From the NCBI GenBank assembly GCA_040285855.1, contig JAUFOQ010000013.1, positions 558,001 to 622,000 on the forward strand: a DNA stretch of 64,000 nucleotides, read 5' to 3'. The first letter of the stretch is position 1, and every line of letters starts with the position of its first letter. The notes below the pieces were generated by a model. The model made no database searches. It saw only the letters and a program-made list of their open reading frames with translations, and was not told where the DNA came from. Both the position numbers and the translations under genes were made by a program. Source of the stretch: Eukaryota sp. GEM-RC1. Its lineage: Eukaryota. Below, in pieces: positions 6,250 through 49,109 of the stretch.

Positions 6250-6942
6250 TTAAAAATACATTCTATTTTTGTGTAGTGATTTTAACGACTGTTGTGTTTG
6301 ACTGTTGATTGAGTTGTTATTAAGATAAATCGTAGAAACTGAAGAATTTACCTTCAAAACTTCAGCAATTGCAATAGCTCCTTCAAGACCAATTGAGTTG
6401 TTATCTAGATCGATCCTAGAAACTGAAGAATTCACCTTCAAAGCTTCAGCAATTATAATAGCTCCTTCAGGACCAATTGAGTTGAAACCTAGACCAATCG
6501 TAGAAACTGCAGAATTCACCTTCAAAGCTTCAGCAATTGCAATAGCTCCTTCAGGACCAATTGAGTTGTGCCTTAGATCGATGTAAGAAACTGAAGAATT
6601 CACCTTCAAAGCTTCAGCAATTGCAATAGCCCCTTCATTACCAATTGAGTTGTAACCTAGATAAATCTCAGAAACTGAAGAATTCACCTTCAAAGCTTCA
6701 GCAATTGCAATAGCCCCTTCATTACCAATTGAGTTGTAACCTAGATAAATCTCAGAAACTGAAGAATTCACCTTCAAAGCTTCAGCAATTGCAATAGCTC
6801 CTTCAGTACCAATTGAGTTGTTACCTAGATCGACTGTAGAAACTGAAGAATTCACCTTCAAAGATTCAGCAATTGCAATTGCTCCTTCAGGACCAATTGA
6901 GTTGTTATATAGATTGATCGTAGAAACCTCATTTCTCACCAT
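6250..6942 (-). CDS. LRR cassette 4, short type, 8 LRR
   Basis: ORF MVRNEV...KNRMYF. Confidence 0.7.
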   Translation of the reverse strand: MVRNEVSTINLYNNSIGPEGAIAIAESLKVNSSVSTVDLGNNSIGTEGAIAIAEALKVNSSVSEIYLGYNSIGNEGAIAIAEALKVNSSVSEIYLGYNSIGNEGAIAIAEALKVNSSVSYIDLRHNSIGPEGAIAIAEALKVNSAVSTIGLGFNSIGPEGAIIIAEALKVNSSVSRIDLDNNSIGLEGAIAIAEVLKVNSSVSTIYLNNNSINSQTQQSLKSLHKNRMYF

Positions 6943-7298
6943 TTCATCTCAACAATTGTAATAATGAAACTGTATGTTGGTAATTCGATGGTAAATGTAT
7001 ACTATAAATTAACAATATTTCAGATAATAATAAATCTCTGTTGTTGTTGAGAACAATAGCAAGAGCACCAGTAAATAACGTGTGTTATTCACGAGGGTAC
7101 TTAAAATGTGTACCTGAACATCTGCTAAACTACTATGATATTTGACTCTGTAGCGGATTTTTGTTTGGGATAATGTTTGTTCTGAGCAAAATGATTTTTC
7201 AAGTGTGCATTACATTCATCGTTTAATTATGGTGCTTTTGATGAGAAATTAATTATGATTAATGACAAATGTGATGTTTATAAACAATGAAAACTTGT

Positions 7299-8175
7299 TT
7301 AAAAAAGACATTCTATTTTTGTGTAGTGATTTTAACGACTGTTGTGTTTGACTGTTGATTGAGTTGTTGTCTAGATAAATCGTAGTAACTGAAGAATTCA
7401 CCTTCAAAGCTTCAGCAATTGCAATAGCTCCTTCATTAGCAATTGAGTTGTTTCCTAGATAAATCTCAGAAACTGAAGAATTCACCTTCAAAGCTTCAGC
7501 AATTGCAATAGCTCCTTCATTACCAATTGAGTTGCCACCTAGATAAATCTCAGAAACTGAACCATTCACCTTCAAAGCTTCAGCAATTGCAATAGCTCCT
7601 TCACTACCAATTGAATTGTGCCTTAGATAAATCGTAGAAACTGCAGAATTCACCTTCAAAGCTTCAGCAATTGCAATAGCTCCTTCACTACCAATTGAAT
7701 TGTGCCTTAGATAAATCGTAGAAACTGCAGAATTCACCTTCAAAGCTTCAGCAATTGCAATAGCTCCTTCAGGACCAATTGAGTTGTTATATAGATAAAT
7801 CGTAGAAACTGAAGAATTCACCTTCAAAGCTTCAGCAATTGCAATAGCTCCTTCATTACCAATTGAGTTGTGCCTTAGATCGATCGTAGAAACTAAAGAA
7901 TTCACCTTCAAAGCTTCAGCAATTGCAATAGCTCCTTCAGGACCAATTGAGTTGCCAGCTAGATGGATCGCTCCTGAGTTGTTCCATAGATAAATCTCAG
8001 AAACTGAACAATTCACCTTCAAAGCTTCAGCAATTGCAATAGCTCCTTCACTACCAATTGAATTGTGCCTTAGATAAATCGCAGAAACTGAAGAATTCAC
8101 CTTCAAAGCTTCAGCAATTGCAATAGCTCCTTCAGGACCAATTGAGTTGTAATCTAGATTGATCGTAGAAACCTC
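7299..8175 (-). pseudogene. LRR cassette 5, ATG-less, ~11 LRR including one internally deleted module
   Basis: 2-nt AT insertion after MVRN puts the ATG out of frame. In-frame deletion gives WNNSGAIHL. Extra A at the stop. Confidence 0.75.
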
Positions 8176-8549
8176 ATATTTCTCACCATTTCATCTCAAC
8201 AATTTTAATAATGAAACTGTACATTGGGAATTCGATGGTAAATGTATAGTAGAAATTAACAATTCTTCAGATACTAATAAAGTTCTGTTGTTGTTGTTGT
8301 GAACAATAACAAAAGTACCAGTAAATAACGTGTGTTATTCATTAGGGCAGTATTTAAAATCTGTACTTGAACATCTGCTAAACTACTATGATATTTGACT
8401 GTCACGGAGTTTTGTTTGGGATAATGTTTGTTCTGAGCAAAATGATTTTTCAAATGTGTATTATATTCACCGATTAATTATGGTACTTTTGATGAGAAAT
8501 TAAATATGATTAATAACAAATATGATTTTAATGTACAATGAAAACTTGT

Positions 8550-9230
8550 TTAAAAAGACATTTTATTTTTGTGTAGTGATTTTAATGACTGTTGTGTTTG
8601 ACTGTTGATTGAGTTGTTATCTAGATAAATCGTAGTAACTGAAGAATTCACCTTCAAAGCTTCAGCAATTGCAATAGCTCCTTCATTACCAATTAAGTTG
8701 TTATATAGATTGATCGTAGAAACTGAAGAATTCACCTTCAAAGATTCAGCAATTGCAATAGCTCCTTCAGGACCAATTGAGTTGTTATCTAGATAAATCG
8801 TAGTAACTGAAGAATTCACCTTCAGAGCTTCAGCAATTGCAATAGCTCCTTCATTACCAATTGAGTTGCCACCTAGATAAATCTCAGAAACTGAACAATT
8901 CACCTTCAAAGCTTCAGCAATTGCAATAGCTCCTTCATTACCAATTGAGTTGTGCCTTAGATCGATCGTAGAAACTAAAGAATTCACCTTCAAAGCTTCA
9001 GCAATTGCAATAGCTCCTTCAGGACCAATTGAGTTGTTTCCTAGATGGATCGTAGAAACTGAAGAATTCACCTTCAAAGCTTCAGCAATTGCAATAGCTC
9101 CTTCACTACCAATTGAATTGTGCCTTAGATAAATCGTAGAAACTGCAGAATTCACCTTCAAAGCTTCAGCAATTGCAATAGCTCCTTCAGGACCAATTGA
9201 GTTGTAATCTAGATTGATCGTAGAAACCTC
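8550..9230 (-). pseudogene. LRR cassette 6, ATG-less, 8 LRR
   Basis: Open LRR frame (track ORF 8550-9161 starts at TTG). AT insertion at 5' end. Confidence 0.75.
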
Positions 9231-9604
9231 ATATTTCTCACCATTTCATCTCAACAATTTTAATAATGAAACTGTACATTGGGAATTCGATGGTAAATGT
9301 ATAGTAGAAATTAACAATTCTTCAGATACTAATAAAGTTCTGTTGTTGTTGTTGTGAACAATAACAAAAGTACCAGTAAATAACGTGTGTTATTCATTAG
9401 GGCAGTATTTAAAATCTGTACTTGAACATCTGCTAAACTACTATGATATTTGACTGTCACGGAGTTTTGTTTGGGATAATGTTTGTTCTGAGCAAAATGA
9501 TTTTTCAAGTGTGTATTATATTCACCGATTAATTATGGTACTTTTGATGAGAAATTAAATATGATTAATAACAAATATGATTTTAATGTACAATGAAAAC
9601 TTGT

Positions 9605-10201
9605 TTAAAAAGACATTTTATTTTTGTGTAGTGATTTTAATGACTGTTGTGTTTGACTGTTGATTGAGTTGTTATCTAGATAAATCTCAGAAACTGAAGA
9701 ATTCACCTTCAAAGCTTCAGCAATTGCAATAGCTCCTTCATTACCAATTGAGTTGCCACCTAGATAAATCTCAGAAACTGAACAATTCACCTTCAAAGCT
9801 TCAGCAATTGCAATAGCTCCTTCATTACCAATTGAGTTGCCACCTAGATAAATCTCAGAAACTGAACAATTCACCTTCAAAGCTTCAGCAATTGCAATAG
9901 CTCCTTCACTACCAATTGAATTGTGCCTTAGATAAATCGTAGAAACTGCAGAATTCACCTTCAAAGCTTCAGCAATTGCAATAGCTCCTTCATTACCAAT
10001 TGAGTTGCCACCTAGATAAATCTCAGAAACTGAACAATTCACCTTCAAAGCTTCAGCAATTGCAATAGCTCCTTCACTACCAATTGAATTGTGCCTTAGA
10101 TAAATCGTAGAAACTGCAGAATTCACCTTCAAAGCTTCAGCAATTGCAATAGCTCCTTCAGGACCAATTGAGTTGTAATCTAGATTGATCGTAGAAACCT
10201 C
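9605..10201 (-). pseudogene. LRR cassette 7, ATG-less, 7 LRR
   Basis: Open LRR frame. AT insertion at 5' end. Confidence 0.75.
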
Positions 10202-10574
10202 ATATTTCTCACCATTTCATCTCAACAATTTTAATAATGAAACTGTACATTGGGAATTCGATGGTAAATGTATAGTAGAAATTAACAATTCTTCAGATAC
10301 TAATAAAGTTCTGTTGTTGTTGTGAACAATGACAAAAGTACCAGTAAATAACGTGTGTTATTCATTAGGGCAGTATTTAAAATCTGTACTTGAACATTTG
10401 CTAAACTACTATGATATTTGACTCTGTCACGGAGTTTTGTTTGGGATAATGTTTGTTCTGAGCAAAATGATTTTTCAAGTGTGTATTATATTCACCGATT
10501 AATTATGGGACTTTTGATGAGAAATTAAATATGATTAATAACAAATATGATTTTAATGTACAATGAAAACTTGT

Positions 10575-11348
10575 TTAAAAAGACATTCTATTTTTGTTTA
10601 GTAATTTTAATGACTGTTGTGTTTGACTGTTGATTGAGTTGTTATCTAGAAAAATCGTAGAAACTGAAGAATTCACCTTCAAAGCTTCAGCAATCGCAAT
10701 AGCTCCTTCATTACCAATTGAGTTTTCAGCTAGATAAATTTCAGAAACTGAAGAATTCACCTTCAAAGCTTCAGCAATCGCAATAGCTCCTTCATTACCA
10801 ATTGAGTTGTTATCTAGAAAAATCGTAGAAACTGAAGAATTCACCTTCAAAGCTTCAGCAATCGCAATAGCTCCTTCATTACCAATTGAGTTTTCAGCTA
10901 GATAAATCTCAGAAACTGAAGAATTCACCTTCAAAGCTTCAGCAATTGCAATAGCACCTTCAGGACCAATTGAGTTGTTATATAGATAAATCGTAGAAAC
11001 TGAAGAATTCACCTTCAAAGCTTCAGCAATTGCAATAGCTCCTTCATTACCAATTGAGTTGTGCCTTAGATCGATCGTAGAAACTAAAGAATTCACCTTC
11101 AAAGCTTCAGCAATTGCAATAGCTCCTTCAGGACCAATTGAGTTGCCAGCTAGATCGACTGTAGAAACTGAAGAATTCACCTTCAACGCTTCAGCAATTG
11201 CAATAGCTCCTTCATTACCAATTAAGTTGTTATATAGATTGATCTTAGAAACTGAAGAATTCACCTTCAAAGCTTCAGCAATTGCAATAGCTCCTTCATT
11301 ACCAATTGAGTTGTTATCTAGATAAATCGTAGAAACTGAAGAATTCAC
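10575..11348 (-). pseudogene. LRR cassette 8, ATG-less (5' variant GAA AGG GTG AAT), 9 LRR
   Basis: Open LRR frame starting at GTG. Same 5' end as cassette 38. Confidence 0.75.
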
Positions 11349-11710
11349 CCTTTCATCTCAACAATTTTAATAATGAAACTGTACATTGGTAATTCGATGG
11401 TAAGTGTACAGTATAAATTAACAATATTTCAGATACTAATAAATTTCTGTTGTTGTTGAGAACAATAGGAAAAGTAGCAGTAAATAATGTGTGTTAGTCA
11501 CCAGGGTATTACTTAAAATCTGTACTTGAACATCTGCTAAACTACTATGATATTTGACTCTGTCACGGAGTTTTGTTTGGGATAATGGTTGTTCTGAGCT
11601 AAATGATTTTTCAAGTGTGCATTACATTCACAGTTTAATTATGGTGCTTTTGATGAGAAATTAATTATGATTAATGGAAAATGTGATTTTTATATGTAAT
11701 GAAAACTTGT

Positions 11711-12981
11711 TTAAAAAGAGATTCTATTTTTGTGTAGTGATTTTAACGACTGCTGTGTTTGACTGTTGATTGAGTTTTCAGCTAGATAAATCTCAGAAAC
11801 TGAAGAATTCACCTTCAAAGCTTCAGCAATCGCAATAGCTCCTTCATTACCAATTGAGTTGTTATCTAGAAAAATCGTAGAAACTGAAGAATTTACCTTC
11901 AAAGCTTCAGCAATCGCAATAGCTCCTTCATTACCAATTGAGTTTTCAGCTAGATAAATCTCAGAAACTGAAGAATTCACCTTCAAAGCTTCAGCAATTG
12001 CAATAGCACCTTCAGGACCAATTGAGTTGTTATATAGATAAATCGTAGAAACTGAAGAATTCACCTTCAAAGCTTCAGCAATTGCAATAGCTCCTTCATT
12101 ACCAATTGAGTTGTGCCTTAGATCGATCGTAGAAACTAAAGAATTCACCTTCAAAGCTTCAGCAATTGCAATAGCTCCTTCAGGACCAATTGAGTTGCCA
12201 GCTAGATGGATCGTGGAAACTGAAGAATTCACCTTCAAAGCTTCAGCAATTGCAATAGCTCCTTCATTACCAATTGAGTTTTCAGCTAGATAAATCTCAG
12301 AAACTGAAGAATTCACCTTCAAAGCTTCAGCAATTGCAATAGCAGCTTCATTACCAATTGAGTTGTTCCATAGATAAATCTCAGAAACTGAAGAATTCAC
12401 CTTCAAAGCTTCAGCAATTGCAATAGCTCCTTCATTACCAATTGAGTTGTTTCCTAGATGGATCGTAGAAACTGAAGAATTCACCTTCAAAGCTTCAGCA
12501 ATTGCAATAGCTCCTTCAGGACCAATTGAGTTGTTATCTAGATAAATCGTAGTAACTGAAGAATTCACCTTCAGAGCTTCAGCAATTGCAATAGCTCCTT
12601 CATTACCAATTGAGTTGCCACCTAGATAAATCTCAGAAACTGAACAATTCACCTTCAAAAAGCTTCAGCAATTGCAATAGCTCCTTCATTACCAATTGAG
12701 TTGTGCCTTAGATCGATCGTAGAAACTAAAGAATTCACCTTCAAAGCTTCAGCAATTGCAATAGCTCCTTCAGGACCAATTGAGTTGTTTCCTAGATGGA
12801 TCGTAGAAACTGAAGAATTCACCTTCAAAGCTTCAGCAATTGCAATAGCTCCTTCACTACCAATTGAATTGTGCCTTAGATAAATCGTAGAAACTGCAGA
12901 ATTCACCTTCAAAGCTTCAGCAATTGCAATAGCTCCTTCAGGACCAATTGAGTTGTAATCTAGATTGATCGTAGAAACCTC
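11711..12981 (-). pseudogene. LRR cassette 9, ATG-less, 15 LRR, frameshift in A-run at ~12660
   Basis: ORFs 11711-12658 and 12655-12912. Reads ttcaaaaagc instead of ttcaaagc. Confidence 0.75.
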
Positions 12982-13355
12982 ATATTTCTCACCATTTCAT
13001 CTCAACAATTTTAATAATGAAACTGTACATTGGGAATTCGATGGTAAATGTATAGTAGAAATTAACAATTCTTCAGATACTAATAAAGTTCTGTTGTTGT
13101 TGTTGTGAACAATAACAAAAGTACCAGAAAATAACGTGTGTTATTCATTAGGGCAGTATTTAAAATCTGTACTTGAACATCTGCTAAACTACTATGGTAT
13201 TTGACTGTCACGGAGTTTTGTTTGGGATAATGTTTGTTCTGAGCAAAATGATTTTTCAAGTGTGTATTATATTCACCGATTAATTATGGTACTTTTGATG
13301 AGAAATTAAATATGATTAATAACAAATATGATTTTAATGTACAATGAAAACTTGT

Positions 13356-14204
13356 TTAAAAAGACATTTTATTTTTGTGTAGTGATTTTAATGACTGTTG
13401 TGTTTGACTGTTGATTGAGTTGTTATCTAGATAAATCTTAGAAACTGAAGAATTCACCTTCAAAGCTTCAGCAATTGCAATAGCTCCTTCAAGACCAATT
13501 GAGTTGGTCCATAGATTGATCGTAGAAACTGAAGAATTCACCTTCAAAGCTTCAGCAATCGCAATAGCTCCTTCATTACCAATTGAGTTGTTATCTAGAT
13601 GGATCGTAGAAACTGAAGAATTCACCTTCAAAGCTTCAGCAATCGCAATAGCTCCTTCAGGACCAATTGAGTTGAAACCTAGACCAATCGTAGAAACTGC
13701 AGAATTCACCTTCAAAGCTTCAGCAATTGCAATAGCTCCTTCAGGACCAATTGAGTTGTAATCTAGATTGATCGTAGAAACTGAAGAATTCACCTTCAAA
13801 GCTTCAGCAATTGCAATAGCTCTTTCACTACCAATTGAATTGTGCCTTAGATAAATCGTAGAAACTGCAGAATTCACCTTCAAAGATTCAGCAATTGCAA
13901 TAGCTCCTTCAGGACCAATTGAGTTGTGCCTTAGATCGATGTAAGAAACTGAAGAATTCACCTTCAAAGCTTCAGCAATCGCAATAGCTCCTTCATTACC
14001 AATTGAGTTGTTATCTAGATGGATCGTAGAAACTGAAGAATTCACCTTCAAAGCTTCAGCAATCGCAATAGCTCCTTCAGGACCAATTGAGTTGAAACCT
14101 AGACCAATCGTAGAAACTGCAGAATTCACCTTCAAAGCTTCAGCAATTGCAATAGCTCCTTCAGGACCAATTGAGTTGTAATCTAGATTGATCGTAGAAA
14201 CCTC
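13356..14204 (-). pseudogene. LRR cassette 10, ATG-less, 10 LRR
   Basis: Open LRR frame. AT insertion at 5' end. Confidence 0.75.
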
Positions 14205-14576
14205 ATATTTCTCACCATTTCATCTCAACAATTTTAATAATGAAACTGTACATTGGGAATTCGATGGTAAATGTATAGTAGAAATTAACAATTCTTCAGA
14301 TACTAATAAAGTTCTGTTGTTGTTGTGAACAATAACAAAAGTACCAGTAAATAACGTGTGTTATTCATTAGGGCAGTATTTAAAATCTGTACTTGAACAT
14401 CTGCTAAACTACTATGATATTTGACTGTCACGGAGTTTTGTTTGGGATAATGTTTGTTCTGAGCAAAATGATTTTTCAAGTGTGTATTATATTCACCGAT
14501 TAATTATGGTACTTTTGATGAGAAATTAAATATGATTAATAACAAATATGATTTTTAATGTACAATGAAAACTTGT

Positions 14577-14838
14577 TTAAAAAAGACATTTTATTTTTGT
14601 GTAGTGATTTTAATGACTGTTGTGTTTGACTGTTGATTGAGTTGTTTCCTAGATAAATCTCAGAAACTGAAGAATTCACCTTCAAAGCTTCAGCAATTGC
14701 AATAGCTCCTTCATTACCAATTGAATTGTGCCTTAGATAAATCGTAGAAACTGCAGAATTCACCTTCAAAGCTTCAGCAATTGCAATAGCTCCTTCAGGA
14801 CCAATTGAGTTGTAATCTAGATTGATCGTAGAAACCTC
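14577..14838 (-). pseudogene. LRR cassette 11, ATG-less, 3 LRR
   Basis: Open LRR frame. AT insertion. Extra A at the stop. Confidence 0.75.
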
Positions 14839-15180
14839 ATATTTCTCACCATTTCATCTCAACAATTTTAATAATGAAACTGTACATTGGGAATTCGATG
14901 GTAAATGTATAGTAGAAATTAACAATTCTTCAGATACTAATAAAGTTCTGTTGTTGTTGTGAACAATAACAAAAGTACCAGTAAATAACGTGTGTTATTC
15001 ATTAGGGCAGTATTTAAAATCTGTACTTGAACATCTGCTAAACTACTATGATATTTGACTGTCACGGAGTTTTGTTTGGGATAATGTTTGTTCTGAGCAA
15101 AATGATTTTTCAAGTGTGTATTATATTCACCGATTAATTATGGTACTTTTGATGAGAGATTAATTATGATTAATGACAAA

Positions 15181-15765
15181 ACTATATGTTTAAGGCTAAT
15201 GGTTTTCATGGAAAAATTGAACCTTTACTTGCTAATCTTTCTGATCAGCCAAAAGTTGATAGAAGTCGTGGTGATTTGATTGGTCCTTGGTTATCTTGTT
15301 AGGAAATTATCGTGGATTTCACGACTGTTGATCCTTGTAATTCAAGATCAATTTCCAAAATTTTTGATGATGATTTTTCTGCTCTTGAAGTGGCTGAAAA
15401 AGGAAAAAATACAAAGTACTGTCACTTAATTAACCAATTGAATGTTGACAGGTACAATTCTTTTGTGTTTCAACCTTTTGCGATGTCGATATATGGTAAT
15501 ATTGGACCAGCTGCACAAGGTTTTTTAACCTCCTTTGGTAAATTGTGTTCTGAGTATGGTAAAGTTTTTAATGAAAATTTTTGGTTGAGTAGGTTAACGT
15601 TTGCGTTGTTTCGTTCAATGCACAGACATTTTAATTCAATTTTAGGTAAGTTGTTCGGTGATGGACAGAAGGATCATAGTTTAGATACTTTAGTTAGTGT
15701 CTGTTAGTTATTAACTTCTGCAAATGCATTTATTTCACTGATTGATCATAAACTCCGTTTTTTTT
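15181..15765 (+). mobile_element. 5'-truncated non-LTR retrotransposon fragment encoding a C-terminal restriction-like endonuclease (RLE)
   Basis: 585-bp insertion in a spacer, flanked by ATGACAAA (15173-15180 and 15766-15773). Frame 15186-15707 reads IEP...RGD...(TAG at 15300)...VDFT...AEKGKNTKY...FQPFAMSIYGNIG, matching the E/RxD/D/K-x-x-KY pattern of CRE/R2/NeSL-type RLE domains. Ends in a T8 run. Confidence 0.8.
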
Positions 15766-15802
15766 ATGACAAATGTGATTTTTATATACAATGAAAACTT
15801 GT

Positions 15803-16987
15803 TTAAAAAGATATTCTATTTTTGTGTAGTGATTTTAACGACTGTTGTGTTTGACTGTTGATTGAGTTGTTATCTAGAAAAATCGTAGAAACTGAAGAAT
15901 TCACCTTCAAAGCTTCAGCAATCGCAATAGCTCCTTCATTACCAATTGAGTTTTCAGCTAGATAAATCTCAGAAACTGCAGAATTCACCTTCAAAGCTTC
16001 AGCAATTGCAATAGCTCCTTCATTACCAATTGAATTGTGCCTTAGATAAATCGTAGAAACTGCAGAATTCACCTTCAAAGCTTCAGCAATTGCAATAGCT
16101 CCTTCGACACCAATTGAGTTGTTATATAGATTGATCGTAGAAACTGAAGAATTCACCTTCAAAGCTTCAGCAATTGCAATAGCGCCTTCAGGACCAATTG
16201 AGTTGTTAAATAGATAAATCGTAGAAACTGAAGAATTCACCTTCAAAGCTTCAGCAATTGCAATAGCTCCTTCAGTACCAATTGAGTTGTTACCTAGATC
16301 GACTGTAGAAACTGAAGAATTCACCTTCAAAGATTCAGCAATTGCAATTGCTCCTTCAGGACCAATTGAGTTGTTATATAGTTTGATCGTAGAAACTGAA
16401 GAATTCACCTTCAAAGCTTCAGCAATTGCAATAGCTCCTTCAGGACCAATTGAGTTGTTTTGTAGATAAATCGCAGAAACTGAAGAATTCAACTTCAAAG
16501 CTTCAGCAATTGCAATAGCTCCTTCATTACCAATTGAGTTGTTTCCTAGATAAATCTCAGAAACTGAAGAATTCACCTTCAAAGCTTCAGCAATTGCAAT
16601 AGCTCCTTCATTACCAATTGAGTTGTTCCATAGATAAATCTCAGAAACTGAAGAATTCACCTTCAAAGCTTCAGCAATTGCAATAGCCCCTTCATTACCA
16701 ATTGAGTTGTTATCTAGATAAATCGCAGAAACTGAAGAATTCACCTTCAAAGCTTCAGCAATTGCAATAGCTCCTTCATTACCAATTGAGTTGCCACCTA
16801 GATAAATCTCAGAAACTGAACAATTCACCTTCAAAGCTTCAGCAATTGCAATAGCTCCTTCACTACCAATTGAATTGTGCCTTAGATAAATCGTAGAAAC
16901 TGCAGAATTCACCTTCAAAGCTTCAGCAATTGCAATAGCTCCTTCAGGACCAATTGAGTTGTAATCTAGATTGATCGTAGAAACCTC
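15803..16987 (-). pseudogene. LRR cassette 12, ATG-less, 14 LRR
   Basis: Open 371-codon LRR frame from TTG. AT insertion at 5' end. Confidence 0.75.
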
Positions 16988-37628: not shown

Positions 37629-38237
37629 TTAAAAATACATTCTATTTTTGTGTAGTGATTTTAACGACTGTTGTGTTTGACTGTTGATTGAGTTGTTATA
37701 TAGATAAATCGTAGAAACTGAAGAATTCACCTTCAAAGCTTCAGCAATTGCAATAGCTCCTTCATTACCAATTGAGTTGTTATCTAGATGGATCGTAGAA
37801 ACTGAAGAATTCACCTTCAAAGCTTCAGCAATCGCAATAGCTCCTTCAGGACCAATTGAGTTGAAACCTAGACCAATCGTAGAAACTGCAGAATTCACCT
37901 TCAAAGCTTCAGCAATTGCAATAGCTCCTTCAGGACCAATTGAGTTGTGCCTTAGATCGATGTAAGAAACTGAAGAATTCACCTTCAAAGCTTCAGCAAT
38001 TGCAATAGCGCCTTCAGGACCAATTGAGTTGTAACCTAGATAAATCTCAGAAACTGAAGAATTCACCTTCAAAGCTTCAGCAATTGCAATAGCTCCTTCA
38101 GGACCAATTGAGTTGTTAAATAGATAAATCTTAGAAACTGAAGAATTCACCTTCAAAGATTCAGCAATTGCAATAGCTCCTTCAGGACCAATTGAGTTGT
38201 TATATAGATTGATCGTAGAAACCTCATTTCTCACCAT
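37629..38237 (-). CDS. LRR cassette 32, short type, 7 LRR
   Basis: ORF MVRNEV...KNRMYF. Confidence 0.7.
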   Translation of the reverse strand: MVRNEVSTINLYNNSIGPEGAIAIAESLKVNSSVSKIYLFNNSIGPEGAIAIAEALKVNSSVSEIYLGYNSIGPEGAIAIAEALKVNSSVSYIDLRHNSIGPEGAIAIAEALKVNSAVSTIGLGFNSIGPEGAIAIAEALKVNSSVSTIHLDNNSIGNEGAIAIAEALKVNSSVSTIYLYNNSINSQTQQSLKSLHKNRMYF

Positions 38238-38593
38238 TTCATCTCAACACTTGTAATAATGAAACTGTATGTTGGTAATTCGATGGTAAATGTATACTAT
38301 AAATTAACAATATTTCAGATACTAATAAATCTCTGTTGTTGTTGAGAACAATAGCAAGAGCACCAGTAAATAACGTGTGTTATTCACGAGGGTACTTAAA
38401 ATGTGTACCTGAACATCTGCTAAACTACTATGATATTTGACTCTGTAGCGGAGTTTTGTTTGGGATAATGTTTGTTCTGAGCAAAATGATTTTTCAAGTG
38501 TGCATTACATTCATCGTTTAATTATGGTGCTTTTGATGAGAAATTAATTATGATTAATGACAAATGTGATTTTTATAAACAATGAAAACTTGT

Positions 38594-38951
38594 TTAAAAA
38601 AGACATTCTATTTTTGTGTAGTGATTTTAACGACTGTTGTGTTTGACTGTTGATTGAGTTGTTATCTAGAGAAATCGTAGAAACTGAACAATTCACCTTC
38701 AACGCTTCAGCAATTGCAATAGCTCCTTCATTACCAATTGAGTTGGTCCATAGATTGATCGTAGAAACTGAAGAATTCACCTTCAAAGCTTCAGCAATTG
38801 CAATTGCTCCTTCAGGACCAATTGAGTTGTTATATAGATTGATCGTAGAAACTGAAGAATTCACCTTCAAAGATTCAGCAATTGCAATAGCTGCTTCAGG
38901 ACCAATTGAGTTGTTATATAGATTGATCGTAGAAACCTCATTTCTCACCAT
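38594..38951 (-). CDS. LRR cassette 33, short type, 4 LRR
   Basis: ORF MVRNEV. An extra A at the usual stop extends the track ORF to 38544. Confidence 0.7.
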
Positions 38952-39307
38952 TTCATCTCAACACTTGTAATAATGAAACTGTATGTTGGTAATTCGATGG
39001 TAAATGTATACTATAAATTAACAATATTTCAGATACTAATAAATCTCTGTTGTTGTTGAGAACAATAGCAAGAGCACCAGTAAATAACGTGTGTTATTCA
39101 CGAGGGTACTTAAAATGTGTACCTGAACATCTGCTAAACTACTATGATATTTGACTCTGTAGCGGAGTTTTGTTTGGGATAATGTTTGTTCTGAGCAAAA
39201 TGATTTTTCAAGTGTGCATTACATTCATCGTTTAATTATGGTGCTTTTGATGAGAAATTAATTATGATTAATGACAAATGTGATTTTTATAAACAATGAA
39301 AACTTGT

Positions 39308-40090
39308 TTAAAAAAGACATTCTATTTTTGTGTAGTGATTTTAACGACTGTTGTGTTTGACTGTTGATTGAGTTGTTATCTAGAGAAATCGTAGAAACTG
39401 AACAATTCACCTTCAAAGCTTCAGCAATTGCAATAGCTCCTTCAGGACCAATTGAGTTGTAATCTAGAGAAATCGTAGAAACTGAACAATTCACCTTCAA
39501 CGCTTCAGCAATTGCAATAGCTCCTTCAGGACCAATTGAGTTGTAATCTAGATAAATCTTAGAAACTGAAGAATTCACCTTCAAAGCTTCAGCAATTGCA
39601 ATAGCTCCTTCACTACCAATTGAATTGTGCCTTAGATAAATCGTAGAAACTGCAGAATTCACCTTCAACGCTTCAGCAATTGCAATAGCATAGCTCCTTC
39701 AGGACCAATTGAGTTGTTAAATAGATAAATCTTAGAAACTGAAGAATTCATCTTCAAAGCTTCAGCAATTGCAATAGCTCCTTCAGGACCAATTGAATTG
39801 TGCCTTAGATAAATCGTAGAAACTGCAGAATTCACCTTCAAAGCTTCAGCAATTGCAATAGCTCCTTCATTACCAATTGAGTTGGTCCATAGATTGATCG
39901 TAGAAACTGAAGAATTCACCTTCAAAGCTTCAGCAATTGCAATTGCTCCTTCAGGACCAATTGAGTTGTTATATAGATTGATCGTAGAAACTGAAGAATT
40001 CACCTTCAAAGATTCAGCAATTGCAATAGCTCCTTCAGGACCAATTGAGTTGTTATATAGATTGAACGTAGAAACCTCATTTCTCACCAT
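39308..40090 (-). pseudogene. LRR cassette 34, short type, 9 LRR, frameshifted by a 5-nt duplication at ~39690
   Basis: tgcaatagcatagctcc splits ORFs 39665-40090 and 39258-39668. Confidence 0.7.
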
Positions 40091-40446
40091 TTCATCTCAA
40101 CACTTGTAATAATGAAACTGTATGTTGGTAATTCGATGGTAAATGTATACTATAAATTAACAATATTTCAGATACTAATAAATCTCTGTTGTTGTTGAGA
40201 ACAATAGCAAGAGCACCAGTAAATAACGTGTGTTATTCACGAGGGTACTTAAAATGTGTACCTGAACATCTGCTAAACTACTATGATATTTGACTCTGTA
40301 GCGGAGTTTTGTTTGGGATAATGTTTGTTCTGAGCAAAATGATTTTTCAAGTGTGCATTACATTCATCGTTTAATTATGGTGCTTTTGATGAGAAATTAA
40401 TTATGATTAATGACAAATGTGATTTTTATAAACAATGAAAACTTGT

Positions 40447-40804
40447 TTAAAAAAGACATTCTATTTTTGTGTAGTGATTTTAACGACTGTTGTGTTTGAC
40501 TGTTGATTGAGTTGTTATCTAGAGAAATCGTAGAAACTGAAGAATTCACCTTCAACGCTTCAGCAATTGCAATAGCTCCTTCATTACCAATTGAGTTGGT
40601 CCATAGATTGATCGTAGAAACTGAAGAATTCACCTTCAAAGCTTCAGCAATTGCAATTGCTCCTTCAGGACCAATTGAGTTGTTATATAGATTGATCGTA
40701 GAAACTGAAGAATTCACCTTCAAAGATTCAGCAATTGCAATAGCTGCTTCAGGACCAATTGAGTTGTTATATAGATTGATCGTAGAAACCTCATTTCTCA
40801 CCAT
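40447..40804 (-). CDS. LRR cassette 35, short type, 4 LRR
   Basis: ORF MVRNEV. Extra A at the usual stop. Confidence 0.7.
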
Positions 40805-40989
40805 TTCATCTCAACACTTGTAATAATGAAACTGTATGTTGGTAATTCGATGGTAAATGTATACTATAAATTAACAATATTTCAGATACTAATGAATCTC
40901 TGTTGTTGTTGAGAACAATAGCAAGAGCACCAGTAAATAACGTGTGTTATTCACGAGGGTACTTAAAATGTGTACCTGAACATCTGCTA

Positions 40990-41267
40990 ATCGTAGAAAC
41001 TGAAGAATTCACCTTCAAAGCTTCAGCAATTGCAATAGCTCCTTCAGTACCAATTGAGTTGTTACCTAGATCGACTGTAGAAACTGAAGAATTCACCTTC
41101 AAAGATTCAGCAATTGCAATTGCTCCTTCAGGACCAATTGAGTTGTTATATAGATTGATCGTAGAAACTGAAGAATTCACCTTCAAAGATTCAGCAATTG
41201 CAATAGCTCCTTCAGGACCAATTGAGTTGTTATATAGATTGATCGTAGAAACCTCATTTCTCACCAT
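40990..41267 (-). pseudogene. LRR cassette 36, 3'-truncated by a deletion fusing it into the spacer
   Basis: Junction catctgctaa|tcgtagaaac at 40990. C-terminal cap is missing. Confidence 0.8.
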
Positions 41268-41623
41268 TTCATCTCAACAATTGTAATAATGAAACTGTAT
41301 GTTGGTAATTCGATGGTAAATGTATACTATAAATTAACAATATTTCAGATACTAATAAATCTCTGTTGTTGTTGAGAACAATAGCAAGAGCACCAGTAAA
41401 TAACGTGTGTTATTCACGAGGGTACTTAAAATGTGTACCTGAACATCTGCTAAACTACTATGATATTTGACTCTGTAGCGGAGTTTTGTTTGGGATAATG
41501 TTTGTTCTGAGCAAAATGATTTTTCAAGTGTGCATTACATTCATCGTTTAATTATGGTGCTTTTGATGAGAAATTAATTATGATTAATGACAAATGTGAT
41601 TTTTATAAACAATGAAAACTTGT

Positions 41624-42904
41624 TTAAAAAGACATTCTATTTTTGTGTAGTGATTTTAACGACTGTTGTGTTTGATTGCTGATTGAGTTGTTATCTAGAT
41701 AAATCGTAGAAACTGAAGAATTCACCTTCAACGCTTCAGCAATTGCAATAGCTCCTTCATTACCAATTGAGTTGTTATCTAGATAAATCGTAGAAACTGA
41801 AGAATTCACCTTCAAAGCTTCAGCAATTGCAATAGCTCCTTCATTACCAATTAAGTTGTACCATAGATTGATCTTAGAAACTGAAGAATTCACCTTCAAA
41901 GCTTCAGCAATTGCAATAGCTCCTTCATTACCAATTGAGTTGTACCATAGATAAATCTCAGAAACTGAAGAATTCACCTTCAGAGCTTCAGCAATTGCAA
42001 TAGCTCCTTCATTACCAATTGAGTTGTACCATAGATAAATCTCAGAAACTGAAGAATTCACCTTCAGAGCTTCAGCAATTGCAATAGCTCCTTCATTACC
42101 AATTGAGTTGTCACCTAGATAAATCGTAGAAACTGAAGAATTCACCTTCAAAGCTTCAGCAATTGCAATAGCTCCTTCATTACCAATTGAGTTGTCACCT
42201 AGATAAATCGTAGAAACTGAAGAATTCACCTTCAAAGCTTCAGCAATTGCAATAGCTCCTTCGACAGCAATTGAGTTGTTCCATAGATAAATCGTAGAAA
42301 CTGAAGAATTCACCTTGAAAGCTTCAGCAATTGCAATAGCTCCTTCGACACCAATTGAGTTGTTATATAGATTGATCGTAGAAACTGAAGAATTCACCTT
42401 CAAAGCTTCAGCAATTGCAATAGCGCCTTCAGGACCAATTGAGTTGTTAAATAGATAAATCGTAGAAACTGAAAAATTCACCTTCAAAGCTTCAGCAATT
42501 GCAATAGCTCCTTCGACAGCAATTGAGTTGTTCCATAGATAAATCGTAGAAACTGAAGAATTCACCTTCAAAGCTTCAGCAATTGCAATAGCTCCTTCGA
42601 CACCAATTGAGTTGTTATATAGATTGATCGTAGAAACTGAAGAATTCACCTTCAAAGCTTCAGCAATTGCAATAGCGCCTTCAGGACCAATTGAGTTGTT
42701 AAATAGATAAATCGTAGAAACTGAAGAATTCACCTTCAAAGCTTCAGCAATTGCAATAGCTCCTTCAGTACCAATTGAGTTGTTACCTAGATCGACTGTA
42801 GAAACTGAAGAATTCACCTTCAAAGATTCAGCAATTGCAATTGCTCCTTCAGGACCAATTGAGTTGTTATATAGATTGATCGTAGAAACCTCATTTCTCA
42901 CCAT
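41624..42904 (-). CDS. LRR cassette 37, short type, 15 LRR
   Basis: 426-aa ORF MVRNEV...KNRMSF. Confidence 0.75.
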   Translation of the reverse strand: MVRNEVSTINLYNNSIGPEGAIAIAESLKVNSSVSTVDLGNNSIGTEGAIAIAEALKVNSSVSTIYLFNNSIGPEGAIAIAEALKVNSSVSTINLYNNSIGVEGAIAIAEALKVNSSVSTIYLWNNSIAVEGAIAIAEALKVNFSVSTIYLFNNSIGPEGAIAIAEALKVNSSVSTINLYNNSIGVEGAIAIAEAFKVNSSVSTIYLWNNSIAVEGAIAIAEALKVNSSVSTIYLGDNSIGNEGAIAIAEALKVNSSVSTIYLGDNSIGNEGAIAIAEALKVNSSVSEIYLWYNSIGNEGAIAIAEALKVNSSVSEIYLWYNSIGNEGAIAIAEALKVNSSVSKINLWYNLIGNEGAIAIAEALKVNSSVSTIYLDNNSIGNEGAIAIAEALKVNSSVSTIYLDNNSISNQTQQSLKSLHKNRMSF

Positions 42905-43260
42905 TTCATCTCAACAATTGTAATAATGAAACTGTATGTTGGTAATTCGATGGTAAATGTATACTATAAATTAACAATATTTCAGATACTAATAAATCTC
43001 TCTTGTTGTTGAGAACAATAGCAAGAGCACCAGTAAATAACGTGTGTTATTCACGAGGGTACTTAAAATGTGTACCTGAACATCTGCTAAACTACTATGA
43101 TATTTGACTCTGTAGCGGAGTTTTGTTTGGGATAATGTTTGTTCTGAGCAAAATGATTTTTCAAGTGTGCATTACATTCATCGTTTAATTATGGTGCTTT
43201 TGATGAGAAATTAATTATGATTAATGACAAATGTGATTTTTATAAACAATGAAAACTTGT

Positions 43261-43698
43261 TCAAAAAGACATTCTATTTTTGTGTAGTGATTTTAACGAC
43301 TGTTGTGTTTGACTGTTGATTGAGTTGTTATCTAGATAAATCGTAGTAACTGAAGAATTCACCTTCAACGCTTCAGCAATTGCAATAGCTCCTTCATTAC
43401 CAATTGAGTTGTTATCTAGATAAATCGTAGTAACTGAAGAATTCACCTTCAAAGCTTCAGCAATTGCAATAGCTCCTTCACTACCAATTGAGTTGTTACC
43501 TAGAGAAATCGTAGAAACTGAAGGATTCACCTTCAACGCTTCAGCAATTGCAATAGCTCCTTCATTACCAATTAAGTTGTTATATAGATTGATCTTAGAA
43601 ACTGAAGAATTCACCTTCAAAGCTTCAGCAATTGCAATAGCTCCTTCATTACCAATTGAGTTGTTATCTAGATAAATCGTAGAAACTGAAGAATTCAC
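43261..43698 (-). pseudogene. LRR cassette 38, ATG-less (GAA AGG GTG AAT), 5 LRR
   Basis: Open frame from GTG with a TGA stop. Same 5' end as cassette 8. Confidence 0.7.
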
Positions 43699-44060
43699 CC
43701 TTTCATCTCAACAATTTTAATAATGAAACTGTACATTGGTAATTCGATGGTAAGTGTACAGTATAAATTAACAATATTTCAGATACTAATAAATTTCTGT
43801 TGTTGTTGAGAACAATAGGAAAAGTAGCAGTAAATAATGTGTGTTAGTCACCAGGGTATTACTTAAAATCTGTACTTGAACATCTGCTAAACTACTATGA
43901 TATTTGACTCTGTCACGGAGTTTTGTTTGGGATAATGGTTGTTCTGAGCTAAATGATTTTTCAAGTGTGCATTACATTCACAGTTTAATTATGGTGCTTT
44001 TGATGAGAAATTAATTATGATTAATGGAAAATGTGATTTTTATATGTAATGAAAACTTGT

Positions 44061-44501
44061 TTAAAAAGAGATTCTATTTTTGTGTAGTGATTTTAACGAC
44101 TGCTGTGTTTGACTGTTGATTGAGTTGTCACCTAGATAAATCGTAGAAACTGAAGAATTCACCTTCAAAGATTCAGCAATTGCAATAGCTCCTTCAGGAC
44201 TAATTGAGTTGTTATATAGATTGATCGTAGAAACTGAAGAATTCACCTTCAAAGATTCAGCAATTGCAATAGCTCCTTCAGGACCAACTGAGTTGTTATC
44301 TAGATAAATCGTAGTAACTGAAGAATTCACCTTCAAAGCTTCAGCAATTGCAATAGCTCCTTCAGTACCAATTGAGTTGTTACCTAGATCGACTGTAGAA
44401 ACTGAAGAATTCACCTTCAAAGATTCAGCAATTGCAATTGCTCCTTCAGGACCAATTGAGTTGTTATATAGATTGATCGTAGAAACCTCATTTCTCACCA
44501 T
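44061..44501 (-). CDS. LRR cassette 39, short type, 5 LRR
   Basis: ORF MVRNEV...KNRISF. Confidence 0.7.
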   Translation of the reverse strand: MVRNEVSTINLYNNSIGPEGAIAIAESLKVNSSVSTVDLGNNSIGTEGAIAIAEALKVNSSVTTIYLDNNSVGPEGAIAIAESLKVNSSVSTINLYNNSISPEGAIAIAESLKVNSSVSTIYLGDNSINSQTQQSLKSLHKNRISF

Positions 44502-44857
44502 TTCATCTCAACAATTGTAATAATGAAACTGTATGTTGGTAATTCGATGGTAAATGTATACTATAAATTAACAATATTTCAGATACTAATAAATCTCTGT
44601 TGTTGTTGAGAACAATAGCAAGAGCACCAGTAAATAACGTGTGTTATTCACGAGGGTACTTAAAATGTGTACCTGAACATCTGCTAAACTACTATGATAT
44701 TTGACTCTGTAGCGGAGTTTTGTTTGGGATAATGTTTGTTCTGAGCAAAATGATTTTTCAAGTGTGCATTACATTCATCGTTTAATTATGGTGCTTTTGA
44801 TGAGAAATTAATTATGATTAATGACAAATGTGATTTTTATAAACAATGAAAACTTGT

Positions 44858-45298
44858 TTAAAAAGACATTCTATTTTTGTGTAGTGATTTTAACGACTGT
44901 TGTGTTTGACTGTTGATTGAGTTGTTATCTAGATAAATCGTAGTAACTGAAGAATTCACCTTCAACGCTTCAGCAATTGCAATAGCTCCTTCATTACCAA
45001 TTAAGTTGTTATATAGATTGATCGTAGAAACTGAAGAATTCACCTTCAAAGCTTCAGCAATTGCAATAGCTCCTTCATTACCAATTAAGTTGTTATATAG
45101 ATTGATCGTAGAAACTGAAGAATTCACCTTCAAAGATTCAGCAATTGCAATAGCTCCTTCAGGACCAATTGAGTTGTTACCTAGATCGACTGTAGAAACT
45201 GAAGAATTCACCTTCAAAGATTCAGCAATTGCAATTGCTCCTTCAGGACCAATTGAGTTGTTATATAGATTGATCGTAGAAACCTCATTTCTCACCAT
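44858..45298 (-). CDS. LRR cassette 40, short type, 5 LRR
   Basis: ORF MVRNEV...KNRMSF. Confidence 0.7.
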   Translation of the reverse strand: MVRNEVSTINLYNNSIGPEGAIAIAESLKVNSSVSTVDLGNNSIGPEGAIAIAESLKVNSSVSTINLYNNLIGNEGAIAIAEALKVNSSVSTINLYNNLIGNEGAIAIAEALKVNSSVTTIYLDNNSINSQTQQSLKSLHKNRMSF

Positions 45299-45654
45299 TT
45301 CATCTCAACAATTGTAATAATGAAACTGTATGTTGGTAATTCGATGGTAAATGTATACTATAAATTAACAATATTTCAGATACTAATAAATCTCTGTTGT
45401 TGTTGAGAACAATAGCAAGAGCACCAGTAAATAACGTGTGTTATTCACGAGGGTACTTAAAATGTGTACCTGAACATCTGCTAAACTACTATGATATTTG
45501 ACTCTGTAGCGGAGTTTTGTTTGGGATAATGTTTGTTCTGAGCAAAATGATTTTTCAAGTGTGCATTACATTCATCGTTTAATTATGGTGCTTTTGATGA
45601 GAAATTAATTATGATTAATGACAAATGTGATTTTTATAAACAATGAAAACTTGT

Positions 45655-46263
45655 TTAAAAAGACATTCTATTTTTGTGTAGTGATTTTAACGACTGTTGT
45701 GTTTGACTGTTGATTGAGTTGTTATCTAGATAAATCGTAGTAACTGAAGAATTCACCTTCAACGCTTCAGCAATTGCAATAGCTCCTTCATTACCAATTA
45801 AGTTGTTATATAGATTGATCGTAGAAACTGAAGAATTCACCTTCAAAGCTTCAGCAATCGCAATAGCTCCTTCAGGACCAATTGAGTTGAAACCTAGACC
45901 AATCGTAGAAACTGCAGAATTCACCTTCAAAGCTTCAGCAATTTCAATAGCTCCTTCAGGACCAATTGAGTTGTGCCTTAGATCGATGTAAGAAACTGAA
46001 GAATTCACCTTCAAAGCTTCAGCAATTGCAATAGCGCCTTCAGGACCAATTGAGTTGTAACCTAGATAAATCTCAGAAACTGAAGAATTCACCTTCAAAG
46101 CTTCAGCAATTGCAATAGCTCCTTCAGGACCAATTGAGTTGTTAAATAGATAAATCTTAGAAACTGAAGAATTCACCTTCAAAGATTCAGCAATTGCAAT
46201 TGCTCCTTCAGGACCAATTGAGTTGTTATATAGATTGATCGTAGAAACCTCATTTCTCACCAT
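45655..46263 (-). CDS. LRR cassette 41, short type, 7 LRR
   Basis: ORF differs from cassette 43 by one residue. Confidence 0.7.
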   Translation of the reverse strand: MVRNEVSTINLYNNSIGPEGAIAIAESLKVNSSVSKIYLFNNSIGPEGAIAIAEALKVNSSVSEIYLGYNSIGPEGAIAIAEALKVNSSVSYIDLRHNSIGPEGAIEIAEALKVNSAVSTIGLGFNSIGPEGAIAIAEALKVNSSVSTINLYNNLIGNEGAIAIAEALKVNSSVTTIYLDNNSINSQTQQSLKSLHKNRMSF

Positions 46264-46619
46264 TTCATCTCAACAATTGTAATAATGAAACTGTATGTTG
46301 GTAATTCGATGGTAAATGTATACTATAAATTAACAATATTTCAGATACTAATAAATCTCTGTTGTTGTTGAGAACAATAGCAAGAGCACCAGTAAATAAC
46401 GTGTGTTATTCACGAGGGTACTTAAAATGTGTACCTGAACATCTGCTAAACTACTATGATATTTGACTCTGTAGCGGAGTTTTGTTTGGGATAATGTTTG
46501 TTCTGAGCAAAATGATTTTTCAAGTGTGCATTACATTCATCGTTTAATTATGGTGCTTTTGATGAGAAATTAATTATGATTAATGACAAATGTGATTTTT
46601 ATAAACAATGAAAACTTGT

Positions 46620-46976
46620 TTAAAAAGACATTCTATTTTTGTGTAGTGATTTTAACGACTGTTGTGTTTGACTGTTGATTGAGTTGTTATCTAGATAAAT
46701 CGTAGTAACTGAAGAATTCACCTTCAACGCTTCAGCAATTGCAATAGCTCCTTCATTACCAATTAAGTTGTTATCTAGATAAATCGTAGTAACTGAAGAA
46801 TTCACCTTCAACGCTTCAGCAATTGCAATAGCTCCTTCATTACCAATTAAGTTGTTATATAGATTGATCGTAGAAACTGAAGAATTCACCTTCAAAGATT
46901 CAGCAATTGCAATTGCTCCTTCAGGACCAATTGAGTTGTTATATAGATTGATCGTAGAAACCTCATTTCTCACCAT
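46620..46976 (-). CDS. LRR cassette 42, short type, 4 LRR
   Basis: ORF MVRNEV...KNRMSF. Confidence 0.7.
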   Translation of the reverse strand: MVRNEVSTINLYNNSIGPEGAIAIAESLKVNSSVSTINLYNNLIGNEGAIAIAEALKVNSSVTTIYLDNNLIGNEGAIAIAEALKVNSSVTTIYLDNNSINSQTQQSLKSLHKNRMSF

Positions 46977-47332
46977 TTCATCTCAACAATTGTAATAATG
47001 AAACTGTATGTTGGTAATTCGATGGTAAATGTATACTATAAATTAACAATATTTCAGATACTAATAAATCTCTGTTGTTGTTGAGAACAATAGCAAGAGC
47101 ACCAGTAAATAACGTGTGTTATTCACGAGGGTACTTAAAATGTGTACCTGAACATCTGCTAAACTACTATGATATTTGACTCTGTAGCGGAGTTTTGTTT
47201 GGGATAATGTTTGTTCTGAGCAAAATGATTTTTCAAGTGTGCATTACATTCATCGTTTAATTATGGTGCTTTTGATGAGAAATTAATTATGATTAATGAC
47301 AAATGTGATTTTTATAAACAATGAAAACTTGT

Positions 47333-47941
47333 TTAAAAAGACATTCTATTTTTGTGTAGTGATTTTAACGACTGTTGTGTTTGACTGTTGATTGAGTTGT
47401 TATCTAGATAAATCGTAGTAACTGAAGAATTCACCTTCAACGCTTCAGCAATTGCAATAGCTCCTTCATTACCAATTAAGTTGTTATATAGATTGATCGT
47501 AGAAACTGAAGAATTCACCTTCAAAGCTTCAGCAATCGCAATAGCTCCTTCAGGACCAATTGAGTTGAAACCTAGACCAATCGTAGAAACTGCAGAATTC
47601 ACCTTCAAAGCTTCAGCAATTGCAATAGCTCCTTCAGGACCAATTGAGTTGTGCCTTAGATCGATGTAAGAAACTGAAGAATTCACCTTCAAAGCTTCAG
47701 CAATTGCAATAGCGCCTTCAGGACCAATTGAGTTGTAACCTAGATAAATCTCAGAAACTGAAGAATTCACCTTCAAAGCTTCAGCAATTGCAATAGCTCC
47801 TTCAGGACCAATTGAGTTGTTAAATAGATAAATCTTAGAAACTGAAGAATTCACCTTCAAAGATTCAGCAATTGCAATTGCTCCTTCAGGACCAATTGAG
47901 TTGTTATATAGATTGATCGTAGAAACCTCATTTCTCACCAT
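47333..47941 (-). CDS. LRR cassette 43, short type, 7 LRR
   Basis: ORF MVRNEV...KNRMSF. Confidence 0.7.
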   Translation of the reverse strand: MVRNEVSTINLYNNSIGPEGAIAIAESLKVNSSVSKIYLFNNSIGPEGAIAIAEALKVNSSVSEIYLGYNSIGPEGAIAIAEALKVNSSVSYIDLRHNSIGPEGAIAIAEALKVNSAVSTIGLGFNSIGPEGAIAIAEALKVNSSVSTINLYNNLIGNEGAIAIAEALKVNSSVTTIYLDNNSINSQTQQSLKSLHKNRMSF

Positions 47942-49079: not shown

Positions 49080-49109
49080 CTAGAGAAAAAATATCCAATA
49101 CTGGGTCGA

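Follow-up and report, generated by a model that had tools for sequence, protein, structure and literature searches.

Several described systems vary a binding surface by shuffling repeated sequence units, and the accounts drawn on here are cited for the passages that bear on their repeats, cassettes or domain plan. In the HNWD/NWD genes of Podospora, WD40 repeats of high internal conservation (HIC) are near-identical to one another except at a few hypervariable positions; they are gained, lost and shuffled, identical repeats occur at different loci, and intact repeats persist in dead copies (PMC13449251). In Ectocarpus, LRR-ROCO as well as NB-ARC-TPR genes are candidate immune receptors with shuffled, diversifying leucine-rich repeat (LRR) units, and non-coding LRR copies have been proposed as their reservoir (PMC3341825; PMC11378527). 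The vls locus of Borrelia holds contiguous non-expressed partial copies in which non-synonymous relative to synonymous substitution (dN/dS) exceeds 1 at exposed sites and falls below 1 in the scaffold (PMC3828179). Among ubiquitin ligases, the TRIM/RBCC proteins join a RING, B-boxes and a long helical region to a variable C-terminal binding domain and have undergone lineage-specific expansion (PMC3503706, PMC5758549), while the 90-bp-exon LRR genes of Tetrahymena show species-specific expansion, unequal crossing over and an association with non-LTR (long terminal repeat) elements (PMC6564038). Here we describe a tandem array of 45 LRR units in a 64,000-nucleotide stretch of Eukaryota sp. GEM-RC1 (assembly GCA_040285855.1, contig JAUFOQ010000013.1, positions 558,001 to 622,000; hereafter the window, numbered from its first letter). 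Each unit is the 3' end, truncated on its 5' side, of a gene from a RING-B-box-B-box-coiled-coil-LRR (TRIM-like) family whose coiled coil is putative, and there is a little better than an even chance that the array is a passive, recombining reservoir of recognition modules, exchanging in both directions with intact paralogues, rather than a set of programmed, anchored donors.

The parent family is best seen in GEMRC1_012661 (595 residues), which with 012972, 008804, 008890 and 008572 makes up the closest relatives at NCBI, within Eukaryota sp. GEM-RC1, of the only head found in the window; each is a single predicted protein running RING-B-box-B-box-helix-linker-LRR-tail. The RING of 012661 scores 28.1 bits against Pfam zf-C3HC4 (cut-off 21) and is followed by two B-box stretches (zf-B_box, 46.9 bits). 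AlphaFold predicts long helices at residues 165-220 and 244-281 at a pLDDT of 50-65, models the zinc-finger region poorly and, with confidence, places a helix at 329-339 ahead of the first strand. This N-cap helix carries a motif, I-x-W-x-x-L-x-x-x-L, that is nearly invariant among the paralogues, and the short cassettes of the array begin inside it. The LRRs match those of ribonuclease inhibitor (RI), NOD2 and the NLRPs in sequence, and the model of unit 13 of the array is an RI-class beta-alpha horseshoe of 28-29-residue repeats (pLDDT 91; Foldseek TM 0.84 to ribonuclease inhibitor 3tsr). The modules are contiguous 84-nt units, not one repeat per exon. Their mean identity to consensus is 0.889 over 294 modules, by a measure of our own rather than T-REKS, and so lies above the 70% required of HIC repeats. 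Variation is concentrated at codons 3, 5, 7, 8 and 13 of the 28-residue module; with strands at about codons 3-7, the hypervariable positions 3, 5 and 7 fall on the beta-strand and 8 just past it. The family is predicted to comprise TRIM-like ubiquitin-ligase sensors. Its head fits the TRIM definition (PMC5758549), compared by domains alone, with an HIC LRR as the C-terminal domain. In the 2012 TRIM survey the sole group listed outside animals is subfamily A, which bears MATH, and the text of the survey never uses the word "leucine" (PMC3503706). In contrast to the Podospora proteins, whose repeats are WD40, the head is not NACHT or NB-ARC (Pfam finds no such domain in P0001), and the family is not one of NLRs.

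On the minus strand, from position 48744 to the window edge, 45 units were parsed: five linker-bearing ("long") units, 16 short units with an ATG, 21 with a two-nucleotide AT insertion after it, and three in which it reads AGG. Each opens with an 18-nt head, continues with two to 14 84-nt modules plus one half-module, and closes with a tail of 21 codons carrying a stop and then a spacer, and the array runs on past the window edge, which cuts unit 44. A sequence-only reading of this DNA had counted 24 start-less units among 40 short cassettes, split between the insertion and the substitution as above, and the minus-strand parse returns exactly these numbers, given that the AGG unit at 829 is included; it lies outside 6250-47941, which contains 39 short units (21+16+2) and one long. 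The same reading was right that a TGA precedes the LRR frame in the AT units (by five codons), that similarity to the long form begins 30 nt 5' of the first module, and that the ATG of the short units is an internal methionine (CYDEMVRNE) of the long protein; a stop codon lies two codons upstream of it. In the AT units this ATG opens an 11-codon peptide ending in a stop in 20 of 21, and an out-of-frame read-on in the last. Two of the AGG units (43707 and 11357) additionally lack their first codons through an in-frame join into a module. That the cassettes are not stand-alone genes therefore holds for at least 24 of the 40 short units, the same kind of partial copy without a usable start that characterizes vls and, likened with it to this array, the lamprey variable lymphocyte receptor (VLR) cassettes mentioned in PMC3341825. 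Unlike those systems, this putatively silent array has no single intact expression site adjoining it, and the product would be a cytosolic E3 ligase instead of a surface antigen or lymphocyte receptor. The difference from Podospora is that the dead copies here are repeat-only cassettes, 45 of them in a tandem array. In Ectocarpus each repeat is an exon and the spares lie in introns, whereas these are intronless, multi-module cassettes with tail and 3' flank and no ROC-COR; the Tetrahymena genes are exon-based and dispersed, and the passages on them describe no headless cassette array. Open papers yielded no account of the array or of a protist TRIM-LRR family, closed papers and bioRxiv supplements being outside the scope of that search.

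No unit in the window is a complete gene, because the only head there is broken and the other four long units are headless. This head, an open reading frame (ORF) of 236 residues on the minus strand at 49110..49820, comprises a RING, two B-boxes (both above their Pfam cut-offs) and a putative coiled coil, shares 99% identity with the N-terminal half of 012661 and ends at the head/linker junction. There a foreign segment of about 104 bp (49016..49119, minus strand) stands in place of the junction codons and brings a TAA and a TAG into the head frame, followed by a -1 frame change. The same segment closes the long spacers, and the other four long units begin with it. Beyond it, in a different frame from the head, unit 0 (48298..49018, minus strand) provides a linker, the N-cap helix, four LRR modules and a tail. 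The long form as the expressed recipient is consequently not supported. An altered genetic code in which TAA and TAG are read through was rejected as a rescue of the head, since neighbouring frames of 321-426 codons are free of TAA and TAG and the paralogues end at the same tail. An intron at the junction was likewise rejected, as the insert has no donor where it starts and the codons that the intact paralogues carry at the junction are absent.

Within the array, module number and order change faster than the spacers mutate. Eight units with identical spacers carry seven different LRR strings of differing length, and ten others carry ten; overall there are 43 distinct strings among 45 units as against 19 distinct spacers among 38, and crossovers are visible in the spacers too. 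Identical runs of up to 254 nt are common to long and short units. Sharing extends to intact genes, as the sequence-only reading had supposed: a five-module tract of unit 26 (22720..23139, minus strand), an untranslatable AT-insertion unit, corresponds to modules 2-6 of 012661 at 137 of 140 residues. None of 100 shuffles of module order did as well (mean 9.0 mismatches versus 3), the next best array unit has six mismatches (119 windows), and the tract contains a module type that occurs once in the array. Unit 13 is collinear with 012661 over seven modules. Exact array modules make up five of the eight in 012661 and four of the ten in 012972, a patchwork of modules from units 6, 35 and 42 together with sub-module recombinants; three residues of 012661 and one of 012972 are absent from the corresponding array columns. 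Paralogues on other contigs have 0/5, 0/7, 2/6 and 1/5 exact modules in the array, P0003 having been left out as mis-parsed. The records of 012661, 012972 and the window ORF all give the same longest contig, 2,144,279 bases, and the two genes and the array therefore likely lie on one chromosome.

In the module pool, exposed strand positions bear the imprint of diversifying selection and the framework that of purifying selection. Non-synonymous relative to synonymous diversity (piN/piS) is 3.8 at exposed positions chosen a priori and 0.22 in the framework (bootstrap 3.5-4.1 and 0.18-0.26; module piS 0.079), so that, as in HIC repeats, diversifying selection falls on a few hypervariable positions. 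The 172 modules of units without ATG show the same pattern, with piN of 0.29 exposed and 0.015 framework against a piS of 0.075. New mutations within the cassettes tell a different story. Rare codon variants, those present in three modules or fewer (37 in all), look neutral: in the framework they number 21 non-synonymous to six synonymous, against a neutral expectation of 2.45:1, and they are not enriched at the hypervariable codons (10/37, P = 0.11, a test of low power at this number). Some also occur in intact paralogues, hence true new mutations must be fewer still. The simplest joint reading would place the selection on coding copies, with exchange carrying it into the array.

The open frames themselves were the starting point of the earlier reading, and its description of them is accurate. 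There is no in-frame stop in 292 parsed modules, or in 294 once two mis-cut modules are re-registered, and the two internal frameshifts it had seen in short cassettes are both private, one of +5 nt in a module at 39739 (within units 1-12) and one of +2 nt at 12726 (within units 14-40). The full-module count leaves out these two, three modules of which a part is duplicated in frame (8004, 472, 328), one that a deletion into the spacer has truncated (41000), one that the window edge cuts, and the 43 half-modules at the ends of units. The partial duplications, 27-60 nt extra in units 44 (328-472) and 39 (8004), stem from out-of-register, frame-keeping exchange. Not reported earlier is an extra T in the T-run of the tail, which shifts the stop in seven units. 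Whether the absence of stops is surprising depends on the time scale. On the short one, 1.2 stops are expected among rare variants (P0 = 0.30), and the neutral expectation that had been named as a possible refutation suffices; on the long one, the spacer tree leads one to expect 3.7 distinct stops where the modules have none (P0 = 0.024), which is moderately surprising. Very recent amplification, offered earlier as a caveat, is on its own insufficient in view of this long-scale deficit and the framework piN/piS, even if the short scale is neutral. The open frames cannot in turn serve as proof of selection on the cassettes, given the rare framework variants and the short-scale expectation.

How, then, might old headless units stay open? 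Unequal crossover in register, together with gene conversion, likely reshuffles the 84-nt modules, and array modules have likely been exchanged with intact paralogues. Homologous exchange between 84-nt repeats would preserve the frame mechanically, and no special 5' anchor is then needed. Indeed, the short 5' homology anchor proposed in the sequence-only reading is not supported, as near-perfect homology is available in every module and the 18-nt head, itself mutated, looks like what was left at a breakpoint. Selection in intact genes, passed to the array by exchange, would keep its frames open; tracts from intact genes would refresh the array, and new module combinations could return to the genes. 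The ligand would likely be microbial or viral, a putative immune role drawn from the analogy with TRIM and HIC receptors together with the selection pattern.

A number of observations weigh against this two-way reservoir. The basis is one assembly of GEM-RC1, and the intact paralogues are known here as predicted proteins alone, with the equal figure of 2,144,279 bases as the sole ground for placing 012661 and 012972 on the same contig as the array. The unit-26 tract, compared at protein level, fits copying from gene to array equally well; 012972 has no collinear run in any unit, shuffles doing equally well in 50-95 of 100; and 012661 has exposed residues not found in the array, from which it follows that exchange is not constant. 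The units are non-independent, and the bootstrap intervals are accordingly too narrow, while the contrast between rare and common framework variants reaches only P = 0.085. The long-term stop expectation presumes a headless state as old as the spacer divergence, and crossovers within about 25 bp of the junction weaken that argument from age. Short-read polishing, finally, could have erased rare stops or alleles in the modules; single-copy variants number 0.69/kb in modules versus 1.65/kb in spacers, or by hand count about 1.15 without the divergent spacer of unit 43.

The most credible alternative, though an unlikely one, is a one-way graveyard in which intact genes shed truncated copies that are amplified as a satellite, with no flow back and no function for the array. 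The neutral look of the rare variants and their lack of enrichment at hypervariable codons speak for it, and the two frameshifts, the truncation, a retroelement-like insertion in one spacer, the broken head gene and the family fragments scattered on several contigs all sit well with it. The near-identical 84-nt homology would nevertheless present no evident barrier to transfer in the reverse direction, and the patchwork structure of 012972 with its sub-module recombinants also counts against it. At the opposite extreme, and less probable again, stands a dedicated silent-cassette system of the vls or VLR type, with one expression locus diversified somatically, one way, from cassettes kept for that purpose. 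A head followed by at least 44 same-strand cassettes resembles such a layout, start loss is tolerated while the frames stay open, and piN/piS above 1 at exposed and below 1 at framework positions in non-coding copies is the pattern of vls cassettes (PMC3828179, in the passages cited). Yet the adjoining head is broken, so that the single adjacent intact expression site is wanting (the array's far end being beyond the window), there are at least five intact paralogues rather than one expression site, new mutations appear free of selection, rearrangement between cassettes outpaces spacer mutation, and neither recombination signal nor recombinase was seen among the ORFs and Pfam matches of the window. 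Equally improbable is the strongest version of this idea, that a free-living anaerobic flagellate maintains its silent LRR cassettes as a library under selection, to be copied into TRIM-like ligase genes during clonal growth, an anticipatory intracellular repertoire convergent with lamprey VLR assembly.

Explanations that leave the cassettes unconnected to a reservoir fare worse still. The ATG cassettes could be small genes for LRRs alone, serving as decoys or as partners to a separate RING-B-box protein, with the AT and AGG units recently killed copies; 16 short units do retain ATG, tail and stop, elsewhere there are gene models that start at MVRNE (012632, 008843) and ORFs with only RING and B-box (P0005, P0064), and the radiation of one spacer haplotype, B, is recent enough that the AT insertion could be young. 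It is nonetheless very unlikely, for the start would fall inside the N-cap helix (model residues 329-339) with its nearly invariant motif, close behind a stop, AGG is common to haplotypes differing at 6/85 bases, and start-less units have been amplified equally well. It is harder yet to believe that the cassettes are alternative last exons, in which a donor-like GT after the internal ATG would be spliced in frame to the AG before any module 1, leaving the AT insertion and AGG intronic and harmless. Phase-0 donor- and acceptor-like dinucleotides do lie 12 nt apart, with both head mutations upstream of the AG, but these dinucleotides follow from coding MVRNE, two units lack the AG, the acceptor region is purine-rich without a branch-like motif, the break in the upstream head comes ahead of the donor, and every unit possesses a stop and a 3' flank of its own. 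Just as hard to credit is an artefact, in which copy number, shuffling or the AT insertion would come from long-read assembly or polishing. GEM-RC1 is, to judge from its name, presumably the metamonad Skoliomonas sp. GEMRC. The genome of that organism is described as a Canu assembly of nanopore R9.4 reads, polished with short reads and 48% repetitive (PMC11316075, in the part consulted). In the window, a neighbouring single-copy gene of 3.6 kb (54893-58519, minus strand), which encodes a kelch/beta-propeller with Cys-rich, ephrin-receptor-like repeats and predicted membrane segments, has three -1 frame changes and no intron-like gap; these are likely assembly indels, although frameshifting or editing may be involved. 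They count in favour of an artefact, along with the T-run variation in seven tails, and they also tell against the reservoir, since single indels here may be errors, the head's frame change among them. Such errors account less easily for the head's two stops and its foreign segment. Moreover, the AT insertion goes with a spacer haplotype even though its flanks are identical in both haplotypes for more than 20 nt on either side, and variation is limited to structurally meaningful codons and common to separately located genes.

The spacers record how the units arose. A typical short spacer, such as 47948..48297 (minus strand), is about 350 bp of non-coding DNA: a 3' flank of about 310 bp from the tail, common to all units, followed by some 85-100 bp found only in short units and ending at the breakpoint into the N-cap codons. 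Alignment of 38 of 43 spacers (four long ones and one with an insertion were left out) resolves them into a few haplotypes, identical or nearly so within each group and 6.5-9.9% divergent between groups, with differences at 4-8 of 85 bases in the short-unit-specific segment next to the junction. As the AT insertion marks haplotype B and two recombinants, it is likely a single amplified event; AGG, shared between haplotypes as noted, is likely a second, and the 24 start-less units would then represent two amplified mutations, not 24 losses. Short units may have originated in a duplication joining 3' flank to N-cap codons at a 7-nt microhomology and long units in one joining 3' flank to linker, both kinds being subsequently amplified by unequal crossover. 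Along the minus strand, units 1-12 (37629..47947), mostly of spacer haplotype A, are all short; the internal ATG is present in 11 of them, the remaining one is an AGG/deletion unit (43707), and unit 8 is truncated at about 41000. Unit 13 (35474..36999) is a long headless unit of foreign segment, linker and 12 modules. Units 14-40 (6250..35123), mostly haplotype B, comprise 21 AT-insertion, five ATG and one AGG/deletion unit (11357). Three further long headless units, 41-43 (1183..5621), have spacers of about 1.06-1.1 kb, and unit 44 (1..829) is the third AGG cassette. The spacer insertion of about 580 bp (15181..15762, plus strand) is flanked by short direct repeats, ends in a T-run on the coding strand and has no Pfam match. 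Its translation resembles the endonuclease or 3' end of a non-LTR retroelement.

Headless relatives are not confined to this locus. Family fragments occur on other contigs, some predicted from an MVRNE start and some with unrelated N-termini. In P0023 (GEMRC1_008843) two MVRNE-start units stand in tandem within one gene model, which suggests that an array of headless units like this one lies close to intact paralogues on another contig. Also on a contig other than that of the window are four gene models (P0022, P0217-P0219), near-identical to one another, in which an unrelated N-terminus is fused to LRR modules and the last modules differ; they are a second, independent kind of headless unit. 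Among 149 further representatives, LRRs of this type were found in two, both from GEM-RC1. The flagellates GEM-RC1 and TZLM1-RC carry an expanded TRIM-like family; RING-B-box proteins from the two (P0066, P0068, P0069, P0071, P0075, P0214) have unrelated C-termini, some SPRY-like by eye without a Pfam match and one with a weak phage tail collar match. Metagenome scans gave no exact match to the head motif and, for the RING-B-box protein, 49 pattern-matching stretches with none confirmed. In the ESM Atlas the top matches are B-box/RING clusters (0.90-0.91), and B-box plus LRR clusters at 0.86, leads only, suggest that this pairing is not unique to the family. Elsewhere in the window, decayed Sel1/TPR-like repeats can be made out by eye at 53500-54200 (minus strand), upstream of the head gene, and degenerate LTR-retrotransposon-like pol fragments (Pfam RT, RNase H) of higher GC occupy 59500-64000 (plus strand).

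Taken together, the locus is a protist case of receptor diversification of the HIC type, built on a TRIM-like scaffold and unusual for the size of its array of headless cassettes, and its general kind is already known. Little is known about pathogen recognition by phagotrophic protists. In the expanded TRIM-like family to which the locus points, strong diversifying selection falls on the LRR binding face, and a large non-coding pool of modules lies alongside. Were the flow one-way into the array, it would still be a case of concerted evolution holding dead copies open and a warning against equating open frames with function. Whether non-coding repeat arrays feed receptor variation, and do so within a clone or only over evolution, becomes a question that can be tested in a cultured organism.

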